Shown: piece by piece, positions 53,351 through 64,000 of the stretch
Numbering within the stretch: position 1 is the stretch's first letter
Layout: every line of letters begins with the position of its first letter
Source of the DNA: Lachnospiraceae bacterium
Lineage (GTDB): Bacteria; Bacteroidota; Bacteroidia; Bacteroidales; Bacteroidaceae
Length of the DNA: 64,000 bases
Reading direction: 5' to 3'
NCBI GenBank assembly: GCA_963660075.1
Contig: CAVKWN010000003.1
Location: 4,517 to 68,516 of the forward strand
The notes under the pieces: generated by a model
The model's database searches: none
Seen by the model: the letters and a program-made list of their open reading frames with translations, nothing else
What the model was told of the DNA's origin: nothing
Program-made: the position numbers and the translations under genes

Positions 53351-54757
53351 CTATCCTTGGTTTGCTGCCATGAATTCCTCCACATCCTTTGGATGATAAG
53401 GAATGCGATCCTTGCCGATGAACCTGCAACCGTCCTTGGTTATGAGCAGGTCGTCCTCGATGCGGATGCCGCCAAAGTCCTTATAGGTCTCAAGCTTGTC
53501 GAAATTGATAAACTCCTTGCAATGACCAGAAGCTTTCCAATCGTCGATGAGGGCTGGAATGAAGTAGATTCCTGGCTCGTCGGTCACAACAAATCCTTCC
53601 TGCAAACGACGTCCCATGCGAAGGCAATTTGTGCCAAACTGCTCAAGGTTGGGACGCACTTCGTCGTCGAATCCCACGTTGATTTGGTCGAGCGACTCCA
53701 TGTCGTGAACGTCCATGCCCATCATGTGGCCTAAGCCATGAACCATGAACATGGCATGAGCACCGGCGGCAATAGCCTCCTCGGTGTCACCCTTCATCAA
53801 GCCTATCTCCTTGAGCCTGTCGGTGATAAGGCGGCATACACCAAAGTGAACGTCCCACCACTTAACGCCAGGCTTAGCCACTGAGAGAGCGTAGTCGTGA
53901 GCCGCCTCTACAATGGAGTAAATCTCAAGTTGTCTTTGGTCGAAGTGACCGCTTACAGGTGTCGTGCGAGTGTTGTCAGAACAATAGTGGTCCATGGTCT
54001 CGGCACCAGCGTCGCAGAGCATCAACTTGCCAGCCTGCAATTTGTTCAATGATGGCGCGCCATGCTGTATCTCGCCATGTTGAGACAATATCGTTGGGAA
54101 GCTCACCATCGAGCCCATGCTGTTGGCAATGCCATCCAGCGCGCCGGCTATTTCTTTCTCTACCACACCAGGACGACACATCTTCATGGCAGTGGTATGC
54201 ATCTTGTATCCTATGATTGCAGCCCTCTCCAGCTCGTCGATCTCCTCTTGCGTCTTGGTAGAACGCAACTTCACCACGGCCTGTATGAGAGGCATCGACG
54301 CGCTTTCCTTCTGCTGGTTGGGATGTATGCCAAGAAGGTCGAATATCTGTATCTTGATGTCCGCGCGATAAGGTGGAAGGAAGTGAATCTTCCTGTGAAG
54401 ACGCATGGCATCGTTGCAGATGGTCTTCAGCGACTTCATTGGGGCGGAATTGTGTACACCAACCTGAGCCGCCATGTCGTGGACGCTATCCACAGAGCCA
54501 TACCAAACAATGTCGTCGATGCTGATGTCATCGCCCACAAGTGTCTCGATATCGTTGTCCACGTCGATCACGCCTACAAGCCCGTCGCGCTGCTGACCAA
54601 AAAAGTACAAGAACGACGAGTCTTGACGGAATGGATAATAAGTGTTGTTGGGGAAGTTGGCAGGAGAACCATTGTTGCCAAAAAGCAAAATGACGCCCTC
54701 ACCTACGAGCTTCTTTAGCTCTGCCCGACGATTTACATAAGTCTCTTTGCTGAACAT
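53351..54757 (-). CDS. Xaa-Pro aminopeptidase (M24B, PepP-like)
   Basis: 468 aa from ATG 54757 (MFSKETYVNRRAEL...). Metal-ligand motifs HGLGHMMGMDVHD, EPGIY and IRIEDD. The track's 631-aa version runs through the promoter and the patatin gene. Confidence 0.85.
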   Translation of the reverse strand: MFSKETYVNRRAELKKLVGEGVILLFGNNGSPANFPNNTYYPFRQDSSFLYFFGQQRDGLVGVIDVDNDIETLVGDDISIDDIVWYGSVDSVHDMAAQVGVHNSAPMKSLKTICNDAMRLHRKIHFLPPYRADIKIQIFDLLGIHPNQQKESASMPLIQAVVKLRSTKTQEEIDELERAAIIGYKMHTTAMKMCRPGVVEKEIAGALDGIANSMGSMVSFPTILSQHGEIQHGAPSLNKLQAGKLMLCDAGAETMDHYCSDNTRTTPVSGHFDQRQLEIYSIVEAAHDYALSVAKPGVKWWDVHFGVCRLITDRLKEIGLMKGDTEEAIAAGAHAMFMVHGLGHMMGMDVHDMESLDQINVGFDDEVRPNLEQFGTNCLRMGRRLQEGFVVTDEPGIYFIPALIDDWKASGHCKEFINFDKLETYKDFGGIRIEDDLLITKDGCRFIGKDRIPYHPKDVEEFMAANQG

Positions 54758-54787
54758 AGTCTGAATGTTTTTGAGTTCTTTATAAAG

Positions 54788-54795
54788 CAAAATTA
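54788..54795 (-). promoter_or_regulatory. -7 promoter box TAATTTTG for the aminopeptidase gene
   Basis: Exact TAnnTTTG about 30 nt upstream of ATG 54757. Confidence 0.45.
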
Positions 54796-54817
54796 CAAAA
54801 GTTTGATAGAAAAATCT

Positions 54818-54825
54818 TAACTTTG
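54818..54825 (+). promoter_or_regulatory. -7 promoter box TAACTTTG for the patatin-like gene
   Basis: Exact TAnnTTTG about 22 nt upstream of ATG 54848. Confidence 0.45.
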
Positions 54826-54847
54826 CATACAAAATAACACTTTTTAT

Positions 54848-55705
54848 ATGCTTATTGACCCTCGTTCCATGGGTTTGGTACTTGAAGGCGGTGGCATGCG
54901 TGGCGTATTTACCAGTGGCGTGCTCGATGCCTTCATGAAACACGGACTCTACTTCGACTATATCGTCGCAGTCTCTGCAGGAGCCTGCAACGGCATGAGC
55001 TATGTTTCCCGCCAGCCTCGGCGCGCCCGCCTCTCCAATATCGACTTCCTCGCCAAGTACAACTATATTGGACTTCGGCATCTTGTGACGCAAGGGTGCA
55101 TATTCGACCAAAAGCTTCTGTACGACCGCTTCCCCAATGAGCTGATACCCTTTGACTATGACGAGTTCTTTAAACACTCTGCCGGATTCGAGGTTGTTGC
55201 CACAAACTGCCAGACGGGACGCAGCGAATACCTGACGGAGACACACGACCGCCAGCGCACTTGCGATTTGGCAAGAGCCTCAAGCTCTCTGCCATACGTA
55301 AGCAAGATAACATGGATCGACGGGCGGCCGATGCTCGACGGAGGCATTGTCGACTCCATACCCATAAGACGGGCACAAGCCACTGGCCACAAGCACAACA
55401 TCGTGATAACCACTCGCAACTATGGCTATAGGGAATCGGGACACGACCGCAAGCAGCCAATGTTCATCTACCGCCACTACCCTCGCCTCCGCGTCGTGCT
55501 AAGCCACCGCATTGAGGCTTATAATGAGCAACTGCAAATGGTGGAAGACCTTGAGCGAGACGGACAAATCACCGTCATCCGTCCTCAAAACCCAATGGAG
55601 GTGCACAGGATTGAAAAAGACATCACCAAACTCGAACGCCTCTATGAGGAAGGGTTCAAGCTTGGCGAGGAATTCTGTCAGAATAACGAGATTGCTATCG
55701 ACTAA
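54848..55705 (+). CDS. Patatin-like phospholipase family protein
   Basis: Oxyanion-hole GGGMRG, nucleophile elbow VSAGA, catalytic Asp region LDGGIVD. Confidence 0.8.
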   Translation: MLIDPRSMGLVLEGGGMRGVFTSGVLDAFMKHGLYFDYIVAVSAGACNGMSYVSRQPRRARLSNIDFLAKYNYIGLRHLVTQGCIFDQKLLYDRFPNELIPFDYDEFFKHSAGFEVVATNCQTGRSEYLTETHDRQRTCDLARASSSLPYVSKITWIDGRPMLDGGIVDSIPIRRAQATGHKHNIVITTRNYGYRESGHDRKQPMFIYRHYPRLRVVLSHRIEAYNEQLQMVEDLERDGQITVIRPQNPMEVHRIEKDITKLERLYEEGFKLGEEFCQNNEIAID

Positions 55706-55726
55706 GCCCTGGGCGACATCTTGAGG

Positions 55727-56491
55727 CTATCGCTGGTAATCGTACTTGCGATAATAATCGTTGCCCTGCTTGGGCATCCAGTCTTTCTCTACCGACAGCT
55801 GAAGAGAGAAGTTCTTGTTTGGTGTCCACCTTATGGCGGCACCTAATCGGTCGGCATAAGGATTGTAGCCAGGATAGCCGAAACCATTGCAGCCATAACT
55901 GTAGTATCCGTAATAAGGATAGCCATAACCATTTACACCAGTGTTGGCCAACGACTTTTGACCATATATGAAAGCAGACCAATTGTCGTTTATCTGATAA
56001 CCCAATTCACCATACAATCCAGCTGAAGTAGTATTGATACCACTCCAGTTGAGATGGTTCAAGTAGCCACCCACCGTCAACCATCCACGTTTGCCAATGG
56101 GCATTGAGTAGTTGAGGCTTATGTCTTGGGCGAACCCTGCTCCTTTTGGGGCACCCTTGCCAAAGCCAGCTATCACACTGAGACCAACGCTTCCGTGCAA
56201 CTCGCCTTTGGTTTTCTTTACTTGCTTTTTTGCTGGGCTCTCATTATCAGAGTAAGTGCCGTTTATGTCCTTCGCAGCGTTTTCGCCCTGCGTTTCAAGG
56301 TCCGCCGTGCGTTTGGCAAAAGGAGAACCTGTGGATTGAAACGACATTCCCGTGGCGGGATTTGTCGCCATAATTGCGCTGCCAGGCACAAACCTGACTG
56401 GTGAGCCTCCGTTCAGAACACTGTGGTCTGATTGTGCCGAGGCCAATGCCGGAAGGCCGAGAAATATATATATAATAATGAGTCTTCTCAT
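55727..56491 (-). CDS. Small secreted/outer-membrane protein with a Gly/Tyr/Pro-rich segment
   Basis: From ATG 56491: signal MRRLIIIYIFLGLPALASAQ. Low-complexity GYGYPYYGYYSYGCNGFGYPGYNPY near the C-terminus. No family recognised. Confidence 0.55.
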   Translation of the reverse strand: MRRLIIIYIFLGLPALASAQSDHSVLNGGSPVRFVPGSAIMATNPATGMSFQSTGSPFAKRTADLETQGENAAKDINGTYSDNESPAKKQVKKTKGELHGSVGLSVIAGFGKGAPKGAGFAQDISLNYSMPIGKRGWLTVGGYLNHLNWSGINTTSAGLYGELGYQINDNWSAFIYGQKSLANTGVNGYGYPYYGYYSYGCNGFGYPGYNPYADRLGAAIRWTPNKNFSLQLSVEKDWMPKQGNDYYRKYDYQR

Positions 56492-56512
56492 GATCGTGTA
56501 AGTTATCTCATG

Positions 56513-56520
56513 CAAATTTA
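56513..56520 (-). promoter_or_regulatory. -7 promoter box TAAATTTG for the small OMP gene
   Basis: Exact TAnnTTTG about 21 nt upstream of ATG 56491. The track's start 56515 would lie inside the box. Confidence 0.45.
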
Positions 56521-56573
56521 GTCATTTGAATAATATTTTTGTCTTTTTTCTTGCAAGTTTTAAATAAAAACTA

Positions 56574-56581
56574 TAATTTTG
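56574..56581 (+). promoter_or_regulatory. -7 promoter box TAATTTTG for the phe/tyr leader and operon
   Basis: Exact TAnnTTTG about 29 nt upstream of the leader ATG 56611. Confidence 0.45.
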
Positions 56582-56610
56582 CCGATGATTTAACAAGAAT
56601 AATACAACAC

Positions 56611-56685
56611 ATGAAGTTTTACGCAACATATTCCTATTATTATTTCTACTTTGCAAGCAGTTGTGAAGCGGGAAGTTGCGTGTAA
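56611..56685 (+). CDS. Candidate Phe/Tyr leader peptide, 24 aa
   Basis: Hand translation gives MKFYATYSYYYFYFASSCEAGSCV. 9 of codons 3-14 are Tyr (6) or Phe (3). A-rich stretch before the ATG. Followed by a terminator/antiterminator pair and then pheA. Confidence 0.65.
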   Translation: MKFYATYSYYYFYFASSCEAGSCV

Positions 56686-56746
56686 TTTCAACTTACGACA
56701 AGAGATACAAAACCTCATATAGGTTTGCATTCAAGGTCCCGCTTCA
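56664..56746 (+). promoter_or_regulatory. Candidate antiterminator pairing in the phe/tyr leader
   Basis: TGAAGCGGGA (56664-56673, leader codons 18-21) is an exact copy of the terminator 3' arm core (56756-56765). It is perfectly complementary to TCCCGCTTCA (56737-56746), the terminator 5' arm. Confidence 0.6.
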
Positions 56747-56773
56747 TAAATAGAATGAAGCGGGACTTTTGTT
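56736..56773 (+). terminator. Intrinsic terminator in the phe/tyr leader (candidate attenuator terminator)
   Basis: GTCCCGCTTCAT / ATGAAGCGGGAC, a 12-bp stem with a 7-nt loop, followed by TTTTGTT. It lies 55 nt upstream of the pheA ATG. Confidence 0.75.
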
Positions 56774-56827
56774 AAGAGTCAAGGATAAAAAAACGAGTAA
56801 AGTAAAAGACACAGAATAGAAAACAAG

Positions 56828-57658
56828 ATGAAGAGAATAGCGATACAAGGCATGCTGGGGTCGTTTCACGACATAGCCGCACACGAATACTTCAAGGGCG
56901 AGCAAATACAGTTGATTTGCTGCGACTCTTTTGAGCAAGTGTTCGATAGTGTAAAGCATGATCCAACCGTCATCTGCATGTCGGCCATCGAGAACACCAT
57001 AGCCGGCTCACTGCTCCACAACTATGAACTTCTGCGTGACAGCGACACAACCATCGTAGGCGAACACAAACTGCACATCACGCATTGCATCTGCTGCTTG
57101 CCAGAGGACGACTGGAACACGATACATGAGGTTCATTCCCATCCAGTCGCGCTTATGCAATGTCGCGACTATCTCTTCAAACATGAAGAACTGAAAGTGG
57201 TTGAGGATGAAGACACGGCAGGAAGCGCCAAGTACATACACGAGAACCATTGTCAGGGTTGGGCCGCCATCTGCCATGCCGACGCCGCGAAAATGTACGG
57301 GTTGAAAGTGCTCGACAACCACATCGAAGACAACAAGCACAACTTCACGCGTTTCCTCATTGCCACCGACCCACGTAAGGCCGACTTTCTTAGACCACTT
57401 AACGACGTGAACAAGTCGAGCATGGTTTTCACGCTTCCACACGCGGAAGGCTCTTTGTCCAAAATACTTACCATTCTCAGTTTCTACGACATCAACCTCA
57501 CCAAGATACAGTCGCTCCCCGTCATTGGGCACGAATGGGAATACATGTTCTACGTTGACGTGACATTCGCAGACCTCATACGATACCGACAGTCGATAGA
57601 TGCCATCACGCCACTCGTGAAATCAATAAAAATTCTCGGAGAATATAAAGAAGCATAA
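56828..57658 (+). CDS. pheA: Prephenate dehydratase
   Basis: 276 aa. PDT domain (TRFLI motif) plus a C-terminal ACT domain (SMVFTLPHAEGSL..., IQSLP). Confidence 0.88.
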   Translation: MKRIAIQGMLGSFHDIAAHEYFKGEQIQLICCDSFEQVFDSVKHDPTVICMSAIENTIAGSLLHNYELLRDSDTTIVGEHKLHITHCICCLPEDDWNTIHEVHSHPVALMQCRDYLFKHEELKVVEDEDTAGSAKYIHENHCQGWAAICHADAAKMYGLKVLDNHIEDNKHNFTRFLIATDPRKADFLRPLNDVNKSSMVFTLPHAEGSLSKILTILSFYDINLTKIQSLPVIGHEWEYMFYVDVTFADLIRYRQSIDAITPLVKSIKILGEYKEA

Positions 57659-57661
57659 GAT

Positions 57662-58828
57662 ATGAAACCAGCATCAAGAGTAGACAGCATTCAGGAATAC
57701 TACTTCAGCCGCAAGCTGAAGGAAGTGGCAAAGCTCAACGCGGAGGGCAAGGACATCATCTCGCTCGCCATCGGCTCACCAGACATGCCACCATCGAAAC
57801 AAACCATCGACAAGCTTTGCGCCGTTGCCCAAGAGCCAAACGCGCATGGCTACCAGCCAACGAGCGGACTGCCCGAACTGCGCACGGCAATGGCAGGATT
57901 CTACAAGCGCACCTACGGTGTGGAACTGGATGCAAAGACCGAGTTGCAGCCCATCATTGGCTCAAAGGAAGGCATCATGTATGTGACATTGGCTTTCTGC
58001 AACCCCGGCGACAAGGTTCTCATACCGAACCCTGGCTATCCTACCTACACAGCCGTGAACAAGTTGTTTGGCACACAAATCATAAACTACGACTTATGCG
58101 AGGACAATGGTTGGCAACCAGACTTTGAGCAATTGGAAAAGATGGATCTCACAGGCGTGAAGGTCATGTGGGCCAACTACCCCAACATGCCCACCGGTGG
58201 CAACGCGCGTCGCGAAACGTTCGAACGTCTCGTAGCGTTTGCCAAGGAACATGACATTCTGGTAGTCAACGACAATCCATACTCGCTCATCCTCAACGAC
58301 CACCCAATGAGCATCATGCAGGTGCCCGGGGCTAAAGATTACTGCATAGAGTTCAACTCCATGTCTAAAAGCCACAACATGCCAGGATGGCGAGTGGCAA
58401 TGATTGTGGGCAACAAGGACTACATTTCATGGATGTTCAAGATCCAGAGCAACATAGAGAACGGCACGTTCCGTGGAATACAACTCGCCGCTGCAGAGGC
58501 GTTCAATACAAACTCCAGCGAGTGGTATCGCGAAAACAACATAGAAAACTACCGCCGCCGCCGTACCATTGCCGAGGAGATAATGAAAGTCCTTGGCTGT
58601 ACGTTCGACCCAAAGCAGGTGGGGATGTTCTTGTGGGGAAAAATACCAGACCACTATGCCAACGTTGAAGACCTGACAGAGGCGGTGCTCCACAAGGCTC
58701 GCGTATTCATCACGCCAGGCTTCATCTTTGGCAGCAAAGGCGAACGCTACATCCGCATAAGCCTCTGCGCAAAAGACGACAAAATAAAAGAAGCCTTGGA
58801 AAGAATAAAAGAAGCAAGTCTTGGATAA
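57662..58828 (+). CDS. PLP-dependent aminotransferase, class I/II (aromatic/prephenate aminotransferase by context)
   Basis: NPGYPTY, the NDNPYS motif, and the PLP-lysine region SMSKSHNMPGWR. Confidence 0.85.
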   Translation: MKPASRVDSIQEYYFSRKLKEVAKLNAEGKDIISLAIGSPDMPPSKQTIDKLCAVAQEPNAHGYQPTSGLPELRTAMAGFYKRTYGVELDAKTELQPIIGSKEGIMYVTLAFCNPGDKVLIPNPGYPTYTAVNKLFGTQIINYDLCEDNGWQPDFEQLEKMDLTGVKVMWANYPNMPTGGNARRETFERLVAFAKEHDILVVNDNPYSLILNDHPMSIMQVPGAKDYCIEFNSMSKSHNMPGWRVAMIVGNKDYISWMFKIQSNIENGTFRGIQLAAAEAFNTNSSEWYRENNIENYRRRRTIAEEIMKVLGCTFDPKQVGMFLWGKIPDHYANVEDLTEAVLHKARVFITPGFIFGSKGERYIRISLCAKDDKIKEALERIKEASLG

Positions 58829-58879
58829 CAGGTAGAACACATTATTTATAAGACATCAAATAATATAAAAACATAAGTT

Positions 58880-59950
58880 ATGGAATTGGAACTTGAACCC
58901 CTTAACCTGCCGTCAGACAATGGCGGAGAACGTCCATTAGTAATCGCTGGCCCATGCTCGGCCGAGACTGAGGAACAAGTGATGACAACTGCTCGCAACC
59001 TGGCTGACAAAGGATGCCACATGTTTCGCGCAGGTATTTGGAAGCCTCGCACAAAACCCGGAGGCTTTGAGGGCAATGGAGAGAAAGCACTGCCTTGGAT
59101 GCAGGAGGTGAAGAAAGAGACCGGCATGCTCACCGCCACAGAGGTAGCCACTCCGGAACATGTGGAATTGGCCCGCAAATATGGCGTCGACATCCTGTGG
59201 GTAGGAGCACGCACCAGTGCCAATCCATTTGCCATGCAAGAACTAGCAGACAGCTTGAAAGGTTTCGAGGGTGCCGTACTGGTAAAGAACCCTGTCAACC
59301 CAGACCTTGAACTGTGGATAGGCGCAATGCAACGCATCAATCAGGCAGGAATCAAGAGGCTTGGAGCCATCCACCGTGGCTTCTCAAGCTACGACAAGAA
59401 GATTTACCGCAATCTCCCTATGTGGCAGATTCCAATCGAGCTGCATCGCCGCATACCCAACTTGCCCATAATCTGCGACCCAAGCCATATCGGCGGACGT
59501 CGCGACCTCATAGCGCCACTTTCCCAACAGGCAATGGACTTAGGCTTTGACGGTCTCATAGTGGAAAGTCACTGCGATCCTGACAAGGCGTGGAGTGATG
59601 CTAAACAGCAAGTGACACCAGATATCCTTGACTACATTTTGAGTTTACTCGTGGTAAGAAGTGAGCATACAACGACCGAGGGCATACGCCAACTTCGCTC
59701 ACAGATTGACGAGGTAGATAACATGCTGATGGATCTCTTGGCAAAACGTTTCCGCGTTTGCAGGGAGATAGGCACATTCAAGAAAGAGCACAACATGACA
59801 GTGCTGCAGGCGAATCGCTATGGGGAAATCCTTGACAAGCGTGGCGCCCAGGCGTCACTGTGTGGCATGTCGCCAGAGTTTGCCGGCAAGATGTTTGAGC
59901 TTATCCACGAGGAGAGCGTGCGCCAGCAATTGCAAGTTGTCAACGAATAA
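58880..59950 (+). CDS. Bifunctional 3-deoxy-7-phosphoheptulonate synthase (type I-beta) / chorismate mutase
   Basis: N-terminal KDO8PS-like DAHPS core (GPCSAE, ICDPSH) and a C-terminal AroQ chorismate mutase segment (LRSQIDEVDNMLMDLLAKRFRVCREIG). Confidence 0.85.
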   Translation: MELELEPLNLPSDNGGERPLVIAGPCSAETEEQVMTTARNLADKGCHMFRAGIWKPRTKPGGFEGNGEKALPWMQEVKKETGMLTATEVATPEHVELARKYGVDILWVGARTSANPFAMQELADSLKGFEGAVLVKNPVNPDLELWIGAMQRINQAGIKRLGAIHRGFSSYDKKIYRNLPMWQIPIELHRRIPNLPIICDPSHIGGRRDLIAPLSQQAMDLGFDGLIVESHCDPDKAWSDAKQQVTPDILDYILSLLVVRSEHTTTEGIRQLRSQIDEVDNMLMDLLAKRFRVCREIGTFKKEHNMTVLQANRYGEILDKRGAQASLCGMSPEFAGKMFELIHEESVRQQLQVVNE

Positions 59951-59974
59951 TTATTGTCAAGACTCAAAGACACA

Positions 59975-60754
59975 ATGAGAATATTGATAATTGGAGCCGG
60001 CAAAATGGGCTCTTTCTTTATTGACCTCCTTAGTTTTGACCATGAGGTAGCAGTAATGGAGCGCGATCCTAAGCGTATGCGCTTCACTTACAACTGCCAA
60101 CGCTTCACGACGATGGAAGAGGTTAAGGCTTTCGAGCCGGAGATGGTCATAAATGCCGTTACAGTAAAGTTCACCCTTTCGGCATTTGATGAGGTAATGC
60201 CATATCTTCCAAAAGACTGCATCATCTCAGACATCTCGTCTGTCAAGACTGGCCTGAAAGATTATTACGAGAAGTCGGGGCATCGTTATGTGTCCACTCA
60301 TCCGATGTTCGGGCCTACATTCGCCAACCTCAACCAATTGTCAGAAGAAAACGCCATCATAATAAACGAGGGCGACTACATGGGTCGTATCTTCTTCAAG
60401 GATCTATATCAAAGGCTGGGATTACACATCTATGAGTACAGCTTTGATGAGCATGACCGCACAGTGGCGTATTCACTAAGCATCCCCTTTGTCTCCACGT
60501 TTGTTTTCGCTGCCGTCATGAAACATCAGGACGCGCCGGGAACGACATTCAAGCGCCACATGAAGATCGCACGGGGCGTGCTATCGGAAGACGATTATTT
60601 GCTTCAAGAGATTCTGTTCAACCCCTACACCCATGACCAGGTGTCACAAATACGCATGGAGCTGAAAGAACTGCTGCAAATCATCGACAATAAGGATTCG
60701 GTGAAGATGAAAGATTACCTTACCAAGATAAGGAGCCACGTGGCAAACGAATGA
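59975..60754 (+). CDS. tyrA: Prephenate dehydrogenase
   Basis: MRILIIGAGKMGSFF Rossmann start at ATG 59975 (the track uses an upstream TTG). HPMFGP motif. Confidence 0.85.
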   Translation: MRILIIGAGKMGSFFIDLLSFDHEVAVMERDPKRMRFTYNCQRFTTMEEVKAFEPEMVINAVTVKFTLSAFDEVMPYLPKDCIISDISSVKTGLKDYYEKSGHRYVSTHPMFGPTFANLNQLSEENAIIINEGDYMGRIFFKDLYQRLGLHIYEYSFDEHDRTVAYSLSIPFVSTFVFAAVMKHQDAPGTTFKRHMKIARGVLSEDDYLLQEILFNPYTHDQVSQIRMELKELLQIIDNKDSVKMKDYLTKIRSHVANE

Positions 60755-60778
60755 CCACGTGATTTCACAACGAGTTCA

Positions 60779-60850
60779 TGCTTACTTTCACCGCTCAACG
60801 GCTTACAACAGCCTACGGCGGTAAAGGTAAGCATTTATTAATTCTTTTGG
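60779..60850 (+). terminator. Terminator of the aromatic amino acid operon
   Basis: TGCTTACTTTCACCGC / GCGGTAAAGGTAAGCA: 16-position stem with one mismatch and one G-U, 23-nt loop, followed by TTTATTAATTCTTTT. Confidence 0.5.
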
Positions 60851-60880
60851 TCTTAGCGATAATATTTCAATTATTATCCC

Positions 60881-60888
60881 TAACTTTG
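60881..60888 (+). promoter_or_regulatory. -7 promoter box TAACTTTG for the BASS-type transporter gene
   Basis: Exact TAnnTTTG about 43 nt upstream of ATG 60932. Confidence 0.45.
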
Positions 60889-60931
60889 CAATAGCTTATA
60901 CGCTTATCGCAAAGACAAGCTCATAAATTTT

Positions 60932-61903
60932 ATGCGCATGAAACTATTGGAATTTTTGAAAGACTGGACACTGCTTGTCGCACTTGCGATAGGCTCCATA
61001 ATATATTTGCTGTTTTCAGAGATAACATTCTTGCAACCAATAGGCGACTTCGTTGGTCCTAAGTTGGTTTCATTGATGCCAGTATTGATATTCGTGCTTC
61101 TCTATTTCACGTTTTGCAAGATAGACATGCACAACTTCAAGCCGCGCAAATGGCATTTCGCACTACAAGCCGTACGCACTACCCTTTCCGCCCTTATAGT
61201 TCTCGTCATTGTCAACCTTACGTCACCCGACGTAAAGATAGTTTGGGAAGGAATATTTGTCATTGTCATATGTCCAACAGCCGCCGCGGCTGCCGTTGTT
61301 ACCGAAAAGCTCGGAGGAAGCATCGCCACGATGACGGTATACACTATCATTGCCAACTGTTTCACCGTAGTCATTATTCCTCTATTCTTTCCAATGGTCG
61401 AGCGTGCAGCAAACTTGTCGTTCATAATGGCATTTCTCATGGTACTCGACAAGGTGATAAAAGTATTAATCCTGCCTCTTATTCTTGGTTTGCTAACCCA
61501 ACGCTACCTTCCGAAGGTCACGGCATTCATCAAAAGCATACCAAACGCTCCTTATTATATATGGTCGTTCAACCTTAGCATCATCATGGGGTTGTCGGTG
61601 CAGACCATTCTGCATTCGCCACTTTCCGGCAAGGTGTTATTCCTTTTGATTTTCCTTCCGCTCATAGTCTGCCTTATTCTCTTTAGCATAGGCAAAAGCG
61701 TTGCGGGCATTTGGGGCTACGAAGCGCGCATTGAGGGCGGCCAAGCCCTTGGACAAAAAAACAACATCGTTGGCATTTGGCTGCTGCTTCATTTCTTGAA
61801 TCCGGTTTGTGTCATTGCGCCATGTGCCTACGTATTGTGGCAAAACATCATTAACGCCGTGCAACTTTGGTATAACGAGAAACACGGCTATCTGAAATGG
61901 TAA
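60932..61903 (+). CDS. Bile acid:sodium symporter (BASS) family-like transporter
   Basis: 323 aa with about 9-10 TM helices. The family call rests on size and topology only. Confidence 0.5.
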   Translation: MRMKLLEFLKDWTLLVALAIGSIIYLLFSEITFLQPIGDFVGPKLVSLMPVLIFVLLYFTFCKIDMHNFKPRKWHFALQAVRTTLSALIVLVIVNLTSPDVKIVWEGIFVIVICPTAAAAAVVTEKLGGSIATMTVYTIIANCFTVVIIPLFFPMVERAANLSFIMAFLMVLDKVIKVLILPLILGLLTQRYLPKVTAFIKSIPNAPYYIWSFNLSIIMGLSVQTILHSPLSGKVLFLLIFLPLIVCLILFSIGKSVAGIWGYEARIEGGQALGQKNNIVGIWLLLHFLNPVCVIAPCAYVLWQNIINAVQLWYNEKHGYLKW

Positions 61904-61910
61904 GTCGAAC

Positions 61911-64000
61911 TTGAGACATGTCACTTTCATAATATGCGTATTGCTATCACTTCTCACTGGTTGCACGAGAAGTGACACCAAAATCGTAGACCATCTCAAC
62001 GAGAAGGCTTACGACTACCACTACCGCGACCTCGACTCCGTGCGTGCTTACGCCGACAAGGCCATGAAGCTTTCCGGCAACTACACGGCAGGACGCGCCG
62101 AGGCTCTCAACAACTTGGCCTTTGTGGAAACGGCTGCCATGCGATATAAGCAGGCAAAATCATACCTTGACGAGATCGCGCAAATAACAGACAATCAGAT
62201 AGAGCTGCTGATAGCAAACGTACAGCAAATGAAACTGTGCCAAAAGCAGTCGCACAACAAGGACTTTTACGTTTACAGCGAGCAAGCCAACAAACAACTT
62301 TCGCGCATTAAAGACGAGGAATTCGTGCTCAATGACCACGAGAAGCAAAGATTGGCTTATGCCTCGTCAGAATATCATATCGTTGCCTCTGCATATTATT
62401 ATTATCTCGGCCTTGAGAAACAATCTATTACTCAGCTGGAAAGCATCGACCCTTATGGGAGCATACAACGCGACACGGCACAACTTCTAAATTATTGGTA
62501 CAACATTGGTGCCGGAGGCATTCTTACTGATAAGGACCAGCAACAGAGAACGCGCAAGGAAATGGGATACCTTGCCACGTGCTATAAGCTTGCAATACAA
62601 CACGGTTATCCTTACTGGGAAGCGCAAGCACTGCAATCGATAAGTGAGCATCTACAAGACTCATCCACAAGACGCGAAATAATCAACGACAATTTTCCAA
62701 TAATCATTGCCGTGAACACTGACATGATGCCAGATTCCCTCATAGCCGGCAACCTTGCGCAACGTGCACTGAATATCTTCAAGCTATATGGCGACGTTTA
62801 CCAGACGGCTGGCGCTTGGAGAACGCTCGGTGAGTGCTTCTGGAATATCAACGACAATCGTTCGGCACTTATCTGCTTGGAACACGCGCTGAAAGATTCA
62901 AAGGAAGTGGAAATGGCACCAGACCTCATCGCGTCAATACGCGAAGACTTGTGTCTTGTATACTCGGCGGTCAACGATAAGCGCAACAGCGACTTAAACC
63001 GCAACATATACCTTGACTTGCAAGAACAAACAAGACAAGACAGGCAGTTGGAGGCAAGGGCAACACAACTCGATGACGCCGTGCAGGGACTGAATTTCTT
63101 GATAGTCATCGTCATACTGATGATAGTGTTGGTTGTGGTCTTGCTCGTTATCTTTACACGTATGCGCCGACATAGCGACGAGGCCTTCTCCATTTCCAAA
63201 CTCCTTATGCCCCTAAGCAAATGGAAAAGTAATAATGAGCGCGAAATAGAGATCAGACATGAGCAGTTTGACGAGATAAAAGAAGCCACAGACGTGGCTA
63301 ACCTTCATTTGACGCAAAACCGCAAGCGTAATCTTGAGCAACGCGCCAAGGTGCAACTCATTTGCAGCATTCTGCCGTTGATAGACAGAATGGTCAACGA
63401 GATAAAACGCATAAGACAAGCACAGACCAGCAAGGACAACGGTGATACGAACCTCAAGACGCAAGAAGCCAACGACAAGAGGTTAAGGTATGTGGAAGAA
63501 ATCACCGACAGCATAACTGAATATAACTCCATCCTCACAAAATGGATTCAGATGCGGCAAGGCGAGTTGAGTTTGCGAATAGAGAATTTCCGCTTGCAGC
63601 AAGTGTTCGACATGGTAAGCCACAGCGCAATGGGCTTTACGCTCGGAGGCATCCATCTCATTGTGAAGCCTACCGATGCCGTGCTAAAGGCAGACCCGAC
63701 CCTTACTTTGTTCATGGTCAACACCATTGCCGACAACGCAAGGAAATTCACGCCGAAAGACGGGACTGTGACAATAGAGTCGAGAACCGTAACCGACAGT
63801 CAAGATGGCAATCAGCAATACGTGGAGATATCAGTTTCCGACACGGGAAAAGGAATGACAGAGGAGGTGCTTTCGCACGTCTTCGACCGCACCTATACAG
63901 GCGGCCATGGCTTCGGACTGAAAAACTGCAAAGGGATAATAGAGAAATACAAAAAGACGAGTTCGATATTCAAGTCATGCATGATTGCCGCGGAAAGCAC
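61911..64000 (+). CDS. Sensor histidine-kinase-like lipoprotein (HATPase_c domain), 3'-truncated by the window edge
   Basis: Not in the ORF track because it has no stop in the window. My translation in the frame of 61911: (TTG)RHVTFIICVLLSLLTGC lipobox, a long helical/TPR-like sensor region, one TM helix (LNFLIVIVILMIVLVVVLLVIF, about 63090-63160), then N-box FMVNTIADNARKF and G-boxes DTGKGM and GGHGFGLKNC. Confidence 0.7.
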   Translation, partial: MRHVTFIICVLLSLLTGCTRSDTKIVDHLNEKAYDYHYRDLDSVRAYADKAMKLSGNYTAGRAEALNNLAFVETAAMRYKQAKSYLDEIAQITDNQIELLIANVQQMKLCQKQSHNKDFYVYSEQANKQLSRIKDEEFVLNDHEKQRLAYASSEYHIVASAYYYYLGLEKQSITQLESIDPYGSIQRDTAQLLNYWYNIGAGGILTDKDQQQRTRKEMGYLATCYKLAIQHGYPYWEAQALQSISEHLQDSSTRREIINDNFPIIIAVNTDMMPDSLIAGNLAQRALNIFKLYGDVYQTAGAWRTLGECFWNINDNRSALICLEHALKDSKEVEMAPDLIASIREDLCLVYSAVNDKRNSDLNRNIYLDLQEQTRQDRQLEARATQLDDAVQGLNFLIVIVILMIVLVVVLLVIFTRMRRHSDEAFSISKLLMPLSKWKSNNEREIEIRHEQFDEIKEATDVANLHLTQNRKRNLEQRAKVQLICSILPLIDRMVNEIKRIRQAQTSKDNGDTNLKTQEANDKRLRYVEEITDSITEYNSILTKWIQMRQGELSLRIENFRLQQVFDMVSHSAMGFTLGGIHLIVKPTDAVLKADPTLTLFMVNTIADNARKFTPKDGTVTIESRTVTDSQDGNQQYVEISVSDTGKGMTEEVLSHVFDRTYTGGHGFGLKNCKGIIEKYKKTSSIFKSCMIAAES

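Follow-up and report, generated by a model that had tools for sequence, protein, structure and literature searches.

What is the sequence in front of pheA doing in a bacterium that has its genes for phenylalanine (Phe) and tyrosine (Tyr) synthesis gathered behind it? The question is raised by a stretch of 64,000 nucleotides (nt), referred to below as the window, from assembly GCA_963660075.1 of a Lachnospiraceae bacterium with the GTDB lineage Bacteroidaceae (contig CAVKWN010000003.1, positions 4,517 to 68,516, forward strand). The answer to which we assign a probability of roughly 0.88 is that the region upstream of pheA is a ribosome-mediated leader-peptide transcription attenuator, which monitors the charging of tRNA-Phe and tRNA-Tyr and governs the four-gene pheA operon. 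A preliminary description of this DNA had placed a -7 box, TAATTTTG, at 56574-56581 and a 24-codon open reading frame (ORF) at 56611-56685, and had counted six Tyr and three Phe codons and no Trp codon among codons 3 to 14; coordinates, translation, and codon count were all reproduced. The features at the 5' end of the leader are as follows.

56551..56553, + strand: TTG resembling a Bacteroidetes-type -33 promoter element and located 20 nt upstream of the -7 box, read from the sequence
56574..56581, + strand: -7 box TAATTTTG, consensus TAnnTTTG, from the sequence and 76/76 related loci
56587..56610, + strand: putative short A-rich 5' untranslated region (UTR) without a Shine-Dalgarno sequence, placed from the position of the -7 box
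56611..56685, + strand: leader ORF MKFYATYSYYYFYFASSCEAGSCV, 24 codons plus stop, from its translation and a conserved ORF of 18-27 codons at 76/76 loci
56617..56652, + strand: regulatory codon run, six Tyr and three Phe in codons 3-14, from the translation and the positional codon profile

The ORF ends with TAA at 56683-56685, and Phe and Tyr occupy 9/12 of codons 3-14. Among the 771 ATG-started ORFs of 15-40 codons in the 64-kb window, this leader alone has at least 8 Phe/Tyr per 12 residues, and no other short ORF with a single-amino-acid run adjoining a biosynthetic operon was found in the window. The predicted fold of the leader has an energy of -57.2 kcal/mol, compared with -33.7 +/- 3.8 kcal/mol for shuffled sequences (z = -6.2).

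Between the ORF and pheA lies an intrinsic terminator, a perfect 12-bp stem formed by GTCCCGCTTCAT (56736-56747) and ATGAAGCGGGAC (56755-56766) around the loop AAATAGA and followed by TTTTGTT, with a hairpin energy of -23.8 kcal/mol. The stem begins 50 nt past the leader stop, as previously described, and the end of the T-tract is 54 nt from the pheA ATG (56828). The 10-mer TGAAGCGGGA (56664-56673; leader codons 18-21) had been reported to duplicate the core of the terminator 3' arm and hence to be able to pair with the 5' arm; it is indeed an exact copy and is perfectly complementary to 56737-56746, and with flanking pairs the antiterminator extends to 13 bp (56661-56673 with 56737-56749). 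Two helices that the preliminary description did not contain were found in the minimum free energy (MFE) fold. In helix 1:2, UUUCUACUUUGCA (56643-56656), which covers the last regulatory codons UUC UAC UUU and the Ala codon GCA, pairs with UUGUGAAGCGGGAA (56661-56674), and in the outer helix the 16 nt at the start of the ORF are paired with the 16 nt at its end (56612-56627 with 56675-56690). In these predicted structures, the leader is a complete four-segment attenuator, in which helix 1:2 would be the anti-antiterminator, helix 2:3 the antiterminator, and helix 3:4 the terminator. Its segments are listed below.

56612..56627, + strand: outer-helix 5' strand at the ORF start, partner 56675-56690, from the MFE fold
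56643..56656, + strand: region 1, anti-antiterminator strand, which overlaps the final Phe/Tyr codons, partner 56661-56674, from the fold and pair counts
56661..56674, + strand: region 2, antiterminator strand, leader codons 17-22, containing the 10-mer, from pair counts
56675..56690, + strand: outer-helix 3' strand, ORF end and stop codon, from the MFE fold and pair counts
56710..56727, + strand: small spacer hairpin AAACC...GGTTT in the gap between leader and terminator, from the fold and alignment
56736..56749, + strand: region 3, terminator 5' arm (56736-56747) and partner of region 2 (56737-56749), from pair counts
56755..56766, + strand: region 4, terminator 3' arm ATGAAGCGGGAC, from pair counts and covariation
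56767..56773, + strand: T-tract TTTTGTT of the intrinsic terminator, from the sequence; T-rich in the aligned loci

A simple terminator scan did not detect the hairpin, because the stem can extend into the T-run (AAGG.../...CTTT) and uses up the T's that are counted.

The order in which these helices would form was followed in folds of a transcript that stops at 56754, after region 3 and before region 4, and with the nucleotides under a ribosome masked. Without a ribosome, helix 1:2 had 13/13 pairs and helix 2:3 had 0/13. When the A site of a stalled ribosome was placed on any of codons 5-14, helix 1:2 was absent and helix 2:3 formed with 11-13 of its 13 pairs, and when the ribosome was placed at the stop codon, both helices were absent and region 3 was free for region 4. 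The duplex energies are approximately -11 kcal/mol for helix 1:2, -23.5 kcal/mol for helix 2:3, and -25.7 kcal/mol for helix 3:4. The stalling geometry proposed earlier, in which a ribosome on the aromatic run frees 56664-56673 and a ribosome at the stop covers this segment, holds in the constrained folds.

In the proposed mechanism, transcription would begin a few nucleotides downstream of the -7 box, and a ribosome would load on the A-rich, Shine-Dalgarno-free 5' UTR and translate the 24-codon leader. If Phe-tRNA or Tyr-tRNA is scarce, the ribosome would stall at 56617-56652 and mask region 1, leaving region 2 (56661-56673) free to pair with region 3 (56737-56749) once the latter is transcribed; the terminator would be blocked, and RNA polymerase would enter pheA. 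If both amino acids are plentiful, the ribosome would reach the stop codon at 56683-56685 and mask region 2, and the 3:4 terminator would form and end the transcript near 56773. A leader that is left untranslated would also terminate, with region 2 sequestered by region 1 and the outer helix. The alternation of Phe and Tyr codons suggests one switch answering to either amino acid, matching the dual-product operon.

By its PheA homologues, the window belongs to Prevotella. Related loci were taken from a one-genome-per-species scan for pheA, in which the best 80 matches are all from Prevotellaceae with PheA 74-100% identical. Three of these with almost no upstream sequence and one with 213 nt were left out, and the 76 loci with at least 250 nt upstream were analyzed; pair counts refer to a 77-row alignment (A2), and codon counts refer to 71 distinct leaders (70 and the window's own). 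An ATG-started, Phe/Tyr-rich ORF of 18-27 codons, ending 77-208 nt before pheA, is present at 76/76 loci. Each distinct leader contains 6-10 Phe/Tyr codons (Tyr 20% and Phe 15% overall), and Trp occurs in two leaders only. A TAnnTTTG box is located 5' of the leader ORF at 76/76 loci, mostly 25-34 nt before the ATG, and a full TTTG occurs at the -33 distance (15-30 nt before the -7 box) at 59/76; between the leader and pheA, such a box occurs at 2/76 loci only. The terminator was found at nearly all of the 76 loci. A finder that requires a perfect stem failed on approximately 40% of them, because a single bulged base is common in the 3' arm (GTGAAAGCGGG), and these were recovered by RNAfold and the alignment.

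The codon patterns of the leaders bear on whether the ORF is translated. When the 71 distinct leaders were aligned by anchoring at the last Phe codon, position -3 was Tyr in 70/71, encoded by TAT in 35 and TAC in 35, and position -2 was Phe in 69/71 (TTT 64, TTC 5), while position -4 was Phe in 39 and Tyr in 31, and position -7 was Phe in 49 and Tyr in 19. Every distinct leader has an ATG and an in-frame stop codon. Read at the codon level, these patterns appear to show selection for Phe/Tyr identity and not for nucleotide sequence; the conserved ATG, frame, and stop codon, together with the synonymous variation and the exchanges between Phe and Tyr, imply that the leader ORF is probably translated. 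No variation occurs in the final two aromatic codons (TAC TTT), in keeping with a second role as strand 1.

Selection on the RNA is suggested by the pair counts. In the terminator helix 3:4, 86.7% of the cells are paired compared with 38-54% in slid controls (77 rows); 7/12 pairs have changed on both sides (e.g., UA 57/CG 13 and CG 67/UA 9), and the covariation score was reached by 0/500 shuffles. The corresponding values for the antiterminator helix 2:3 are 89.7% and 37-49%, and eight core pairs are formed in at least 92% of the sequences. Helix 1:2 is paired in 95.6% of the cells, with AU 48, GC 21, UA 4, and CG 1 at the loop-closing pair and UA 36/CG 14 at the outermost pair, and the outer-helix segments are 60-68% paired, with compensatory changes in 12/15 pairs. 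Single loci illustrate these changes. At L016, the leader sequence GAAGCAGG is matched by a terminator 5' arm with CCTGCTTC; G is retained in the 3' arm, and the G-C pair becomes G-U. At L030 and L036, a change of GAA to AGA (Glu to Arg) restores a G-C pair with a C in the terminator arm. In leaders ending with CEAVGRK or CEAEGRM, the upstream partner in the outer helix has changed to match (UACGGC with GCCGUA). At L064 (4784-4984) and L065 (4842-5000), a one-base insertion after the Ala codon causes the ORF to end at a UGA inside strand 2, giving peptides ending ...FASKL and ...FAKTL, with the Phe/Tyr run and all helices retained. Taken together, the pairing data imply that the three mutually exclusive helices (1:2, 2:3, and 3:4) are probably under selection as RNA. 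The highly conserved C-terminal CEAGSCV of the leader peptide coincides with strand 2 and the outer helix and is invariant at the nucleotide level; given the compensatory variants in helix 2:3 and the outer helix and the frameshift at L064 and L065, its conservation is most plausibly a by-product of RNA constraints and not a functional peptide motif.

The element extends beyond Prevotellaceae. The same four-gene operon with a leader occurs in Dysgonomonadaceae (Fermentimonas, Proteiniphilum, and one relative), in which the leader is MIGSVFAFGFWFYFYFSR or the GTG-started NNS[IV]FA[YF]SFGFYFYFSR and the nucleotide core TTTTACTTTTACTTT is shared with the Prevotella leaders. In this family, strand 2 is AGGCAGGATTT or AGGCGGGATTT, and the 5' arm of the terminator, AAAGTCCTGTC or AAAGTCCCGTC, changes in step with it as the 3' arm stays GGGAC/T; helix 2:3 has the compensatory pair AGGCAGGA/TCCTGTC versus AGGCGGGA/TCCCGTC. 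The conservation of a short Phe/Tyr-rich ORF and of the alternative pairing, which the preliminary description had proposed to test in orthologues, was thus found, with compensatory changes, in both Prevotellaceae and Dysgonomonadaceae. At distant Bacteroidota pheA loci (PheA 42-53% identical), the aromatic-rich short ORFs are MKLTQTYFWFYPTLSTGG, MTQAFTTYNFSFYFFFYRPAKGTG, MTRFSGSYFYYFYFNHIDD, and MQKITYIRLYFRIYFQVLE, and the ORF 3' end or the bases just past the stop codon pair with the 5' arm of a downstream terminator. An aromatic ORF with such pairing was seen at L081-L083, L085-L087, and L089.

The leader ORF of L081 (3600-4000) and L083 (3600-4000), both from Dysgonomonadaceae, apparently starts with GTG, not ATG. 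The leader of L082 (Proteiniphilum) has an ATG start and one Trp codon (FGFWFYFYF). At L087 (3001-3060), the called pheA start overlaps a predicted terminator, GGGTCCCGT-GAAA-GCGGGACTT, with a T-run at -7, and the annotated pheA start codon is probably too far upstream.

Several points weigh against an attenuator at this locus. Helix 2:3 has only a small number of compensatory events (7 cells, 4 pairs), a level equaled by 16-25/500 shuffles; the number is low because strand 2 is nearly invariant, as it is coding and pairs with both strands 1 and 3. Equilibrium folds of the full-length leader always give the terminator, even with a stalled ribosome; the switch would therefore have to be under kinetic control, as the classic trp and phe attenuators are. 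We assume that a ribosome loads efficiently close behind RNA polymerase on a Shine-Dalgarno-free leader of approximately 20 nt, and we infer the start site, leader translation, hairpin termination, and Phe/Tyr response in this organism. The leader is also absent from two Bacteroidota pheA operons: at L084 (3427-4846), pheA starts 7 nt after frr, the ribosome-recycling-factor gene, and at L088 (2866-3837), no aromatic short ORF or terminator was found in the 134-nt gap 5' of pheA. The attenuator is widespread in Bacteroidota pheA operons, not universal.

The same features could be accounted for in other ways. The ORF might be an independent mini-gene that has a terminator of its own and encodes a small, hydrophobic, functional peptide, with pheA transcribed from a separate promoter. 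The strong conservation of CEAGSCV and the succession of the ORF's own promoter box and a terminator agree with this, but CEAGSCV matches RNA strand 2 and the outer helix exactly and at the level of invariant nucleotides, is swapped wholesale for CEAVGRK or CEAEGRM with matching partner changes, and is lost by frameshift at L064 and L065, where the Phe/Tyr run is retained. Phe and Tyr are moreover freely interchangeable, only 2/76 loci have a -7 box in the interval from the terminator region to pheA, and the ORF is always tied to a Phe/Tyr operon, even in distant taxa with otherwise unrelated peptides, so we regard a mini-gene as hardly credible. An RNA switch that works without translation, with an incidental ORF and a leader RNA that is bound by a protein, a tRNA, or a small ligand, would explain why the leader is highly structured (z = -6.2) and invariant in part at the nucleotide level. 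Such a switch would not be expected to keep ATG, frame, and stop codon at 76/76 loci, and the TAT/TAC ratio of 35:35 and the swaps between Phe and Tyr are a codon-level signal that is unexpected in untranslated RNA. No Rfam riboswitch, T-box, or other family was matched even at E <= 10, and what the distant taxa have in common is the aromatic-codon run and the 2:3/3:4 logic, with no aptamer-like core; we consider a translation-independent switch highly improbable.

The attenuator could also act as proposed and, in addition, release a terminated leader RNA of approximately 180 nt or a peptide that acts in trans. Such action is reported for rnTrpL/peTrpL of Sinorhizobium. Terminated attenuator RNAs can be stable and structured, and the one here has both a strong hairpin at its terminator (-23.8 kcal/mol) and an exposed core that is invariant. 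On the other hand, nothing in this analysis points to a trans target, and three constraints (coding and the pairing in helices 1:2 and 2:3) account in full for the invariance; we consider an added trans function very unlikely. The cis-acting, ribosome-mediated attenuator is the reading that we prefer.

The genes that this attenuator would control had been assigned to the Phe/Tyr pathway in the preliminary description, and Pfam domains support this assignment for all four.

56828..57658, + strand: pheA, prephenate dehydratase with PDT and ACT domains (Pfam PF00800, E = 1.4e-52)
57662..58828, + strand: class I/II aminotransferase (Pfam PF00155, E = 4.7e-57)
58880..59950, + strand: DAHP synthase-chorismate mutase fusion (Pfam PF00793 and PF01817)
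59954..60754, + strand: tyrA-like prephenate dehydrogenase (Pfam PF02153, E = 5.3e-11), ORF as listed, with an uncertain true start codon

The nearest upstream listed ORF (55727-56515) has no Pfam match and lies on the opposite strand, so the hairpin does not serve to terminate an upstream gene. The spacer hairpin at 56710-56727 would fall inside the antiterminator loop; it persists in near relatives, with a sequence that differs there, and is missing from many other loci. A second -7-type box, TAGGTTTG, is found at 56720-56727, in the spacer hairpin and 5' of the terminator. As a candidate pheA promoter, it was rejected as probably a chance occurrence, in view of this position and of its retention in 2/76 relatives only.

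Two further observations concern the Prevotellaceae loci. Loci from rumen Prevotella (L053:4760-4972, L044:4805-4994, L080:4840-5000, and others; A2 columns 190-276) contain purine-rich tandem repeats between the terminator and the pheA ATG, with the repeat unit ATTGAAGA or GTAAAAA, and sometimes also in the leader 5' UTR; these repeats may be tied to Shine-Dalgarno-independent initiation. A Prevotella-type pheA operon with its leader is also present in L001 (CAVBBO010000026.1), L005 (CAVHEN010000001.1), and L017 (CAVKHS010000036.1), which are titled 'Escherichia coli isolate', 'Oscillospiraceae bacterium', and 'Paratractidigestivibacter sp.', respectively; the PheA of L001 is 100% identical to that of the window. 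These three are probably mislabeled or contaminated metagenome bins.

Is the element a known one? The Rfam family Phe_leader represents the gamma-proteobacterial pheL. Over positions 54000-64000, no Rfam family was matched at E <= 10, including Phe_leader (RF01859), Bacteroid-trp (RF01692), riboswitches, and T-box, and no family reached its gathering score anywhere in the 64-kb window; permissive matches to the terminator hairpin were miRNA-like and were set aside as chance. No experimental study of a pheA leader attenuator in Bacteroidales was found in the literature searched, and text citing the comparative-genomics survey of Vitreschak et al. 2004 yielded nothing specific on attenuators in Bacteroidetes. 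The transcriptome supplements of B. thetaiotaomicron contain no FYFYF-type small ORF and no pheA entry, a full-text search of the literature for 'FYFYF' gave no relevant match, and attenuators are not mentioned in a transcriptome preprint on Segatella copri (bioRxiv 10.1101/2024.04.05.588293). According to the same preprint, most primary start sites of S. copri have such a -7 box, and no clear ribosome-binding site is seen. The novelty claimed in the preliminary description stands with respect to Rfam and to experimental work in Bacteroidales and is reduced by two precedents: a pheA leader is known in Flavobacterium psychrophilum (PMC9723704), and a Bacteroidetes Trp leader is already in Rfam as RF01692 (PMC2864571).

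The closest precedent is the leader peptide attenuation element of the pheA-aspC3 operon of F. psychrophilum (Guerin et al. 2021, ISME Commun 1:33; PMC9723704, SI D9, Table S7), for which putative terminator and antiterminator hairpins, condition-dependent read-through that included nutrient-poor media, and the highest operon expression in such media were reported (PMC9723704). It comes from the same phylum, with pheA followed by an aminotransferase gene, and its 27-codon leader MNTNNTFYSNNSFYFYWNIGRDCYMVI contains an FYFY(W) run. When we refolded the published sequence, GGGAUUGU at the 3' end of the leader paired with the terminator 5' arm ACAAUCCC, which gives the same ribosome-dependent logic. 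The two elements differ in class (Flavobacteriia versus Bacteroidia) and in the Trp codon of the F. psychrophilum leader, and there is no obvious nucleotide similarity beyond the aromatic codon run; the likeness is one of architecture, not established homology. The flavobacterial element was described for one species, in a supplement only, and without comparative or covariation analysis.

The E. coli pheL-pheA system (RF01859; PMC11802643, PMC3082878) shares the leader peptide with regulatory codons, the 1:2/2:3/3:4 logic, and an intrinsic terminator that lies some tens of nucleotides upstream of pheA. In E. coli, the regulatory codons of pheL are all for Phe, and pheA is the sole gene under control; the window's leader alternates between Phe and Tyr codons and stands before an operon for the synthesis of both. 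The promoter type is also different, and the window's leader has no Shine-Dalgarno sequence and no RF01859 match. Mixed codons (Phe-Tyr-Phe) before an aromatic-pathway operon with a DAHP synthase gene occur in aroR-aroF of Corynebacterium glutamicum (Neshat et al. 2014, as summarized in PMC11802643). The actinobacterial aroR, which has three aromatic codons and an unrelated sequence, reportedly responds to Phe limitation but not to Tyr. Bacteroid-trp (RF01692; Weinberg et al. 2010, PMC2864571) is likewise a predicted leader-peptide attenuator of an aromatic amino-acid operon in Bacteroidetes, and through it leader-peptide attenuation is already known in silico in this group. Bacteroid-trp has Trp codons and precedes the trp operon, whereas the window's leader has no Trp codon, precedes pheA/tyrA-type genes, and does not match the model. 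The window's element is best filed as the Bacteroidales version of the pheA aromatic leader already noted in a flavobacterium, of textbook type and absent from Rfam.

The element is not a new kind of regulation and, like the features of its setting given next, would hardly surprise a specialist. Bacteroidota initiate translation without Shine-Dalgarno pairing, and a mechanism that needs close timing between ribosome and polymerase would here be kept in a phylum without Shine-Dalgarno-led initiation. If the attenuator is truly conserved across the phylum, it would point to a tight and uncharacterized coupling of the pioneer ribosome to RNA polymerase. The outer helix ties the start-codon region to the ORF end, and if this reading holds, only a co-transcriptional ribosome could translate the leader; each transcript would therefore be sensed once. 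We regard this reading, with such coupling, one-shot sensing, and trans action of the terminated leader RNA or peptide as its possible parts, as unlikely. The same nucleotides would serve three purposes, as codons and as partners in helices 1:2 and 2:3.

An Rfam family could be built from the 77-sequence alignment and would help to annotate such leaders, which are presently unannotated, and the leader would be a convenient natural reporter of transcription-translation coupling in Bacteroidota. Prevotella/Segatella and other Bacteroidales are major gut and rumen bacteria for which few transcription factors or RNA switches are known. In these organisms, the attenuator would be a strongly conserved cis-regulatory mechanism for aromatic amino-acid synthesis.

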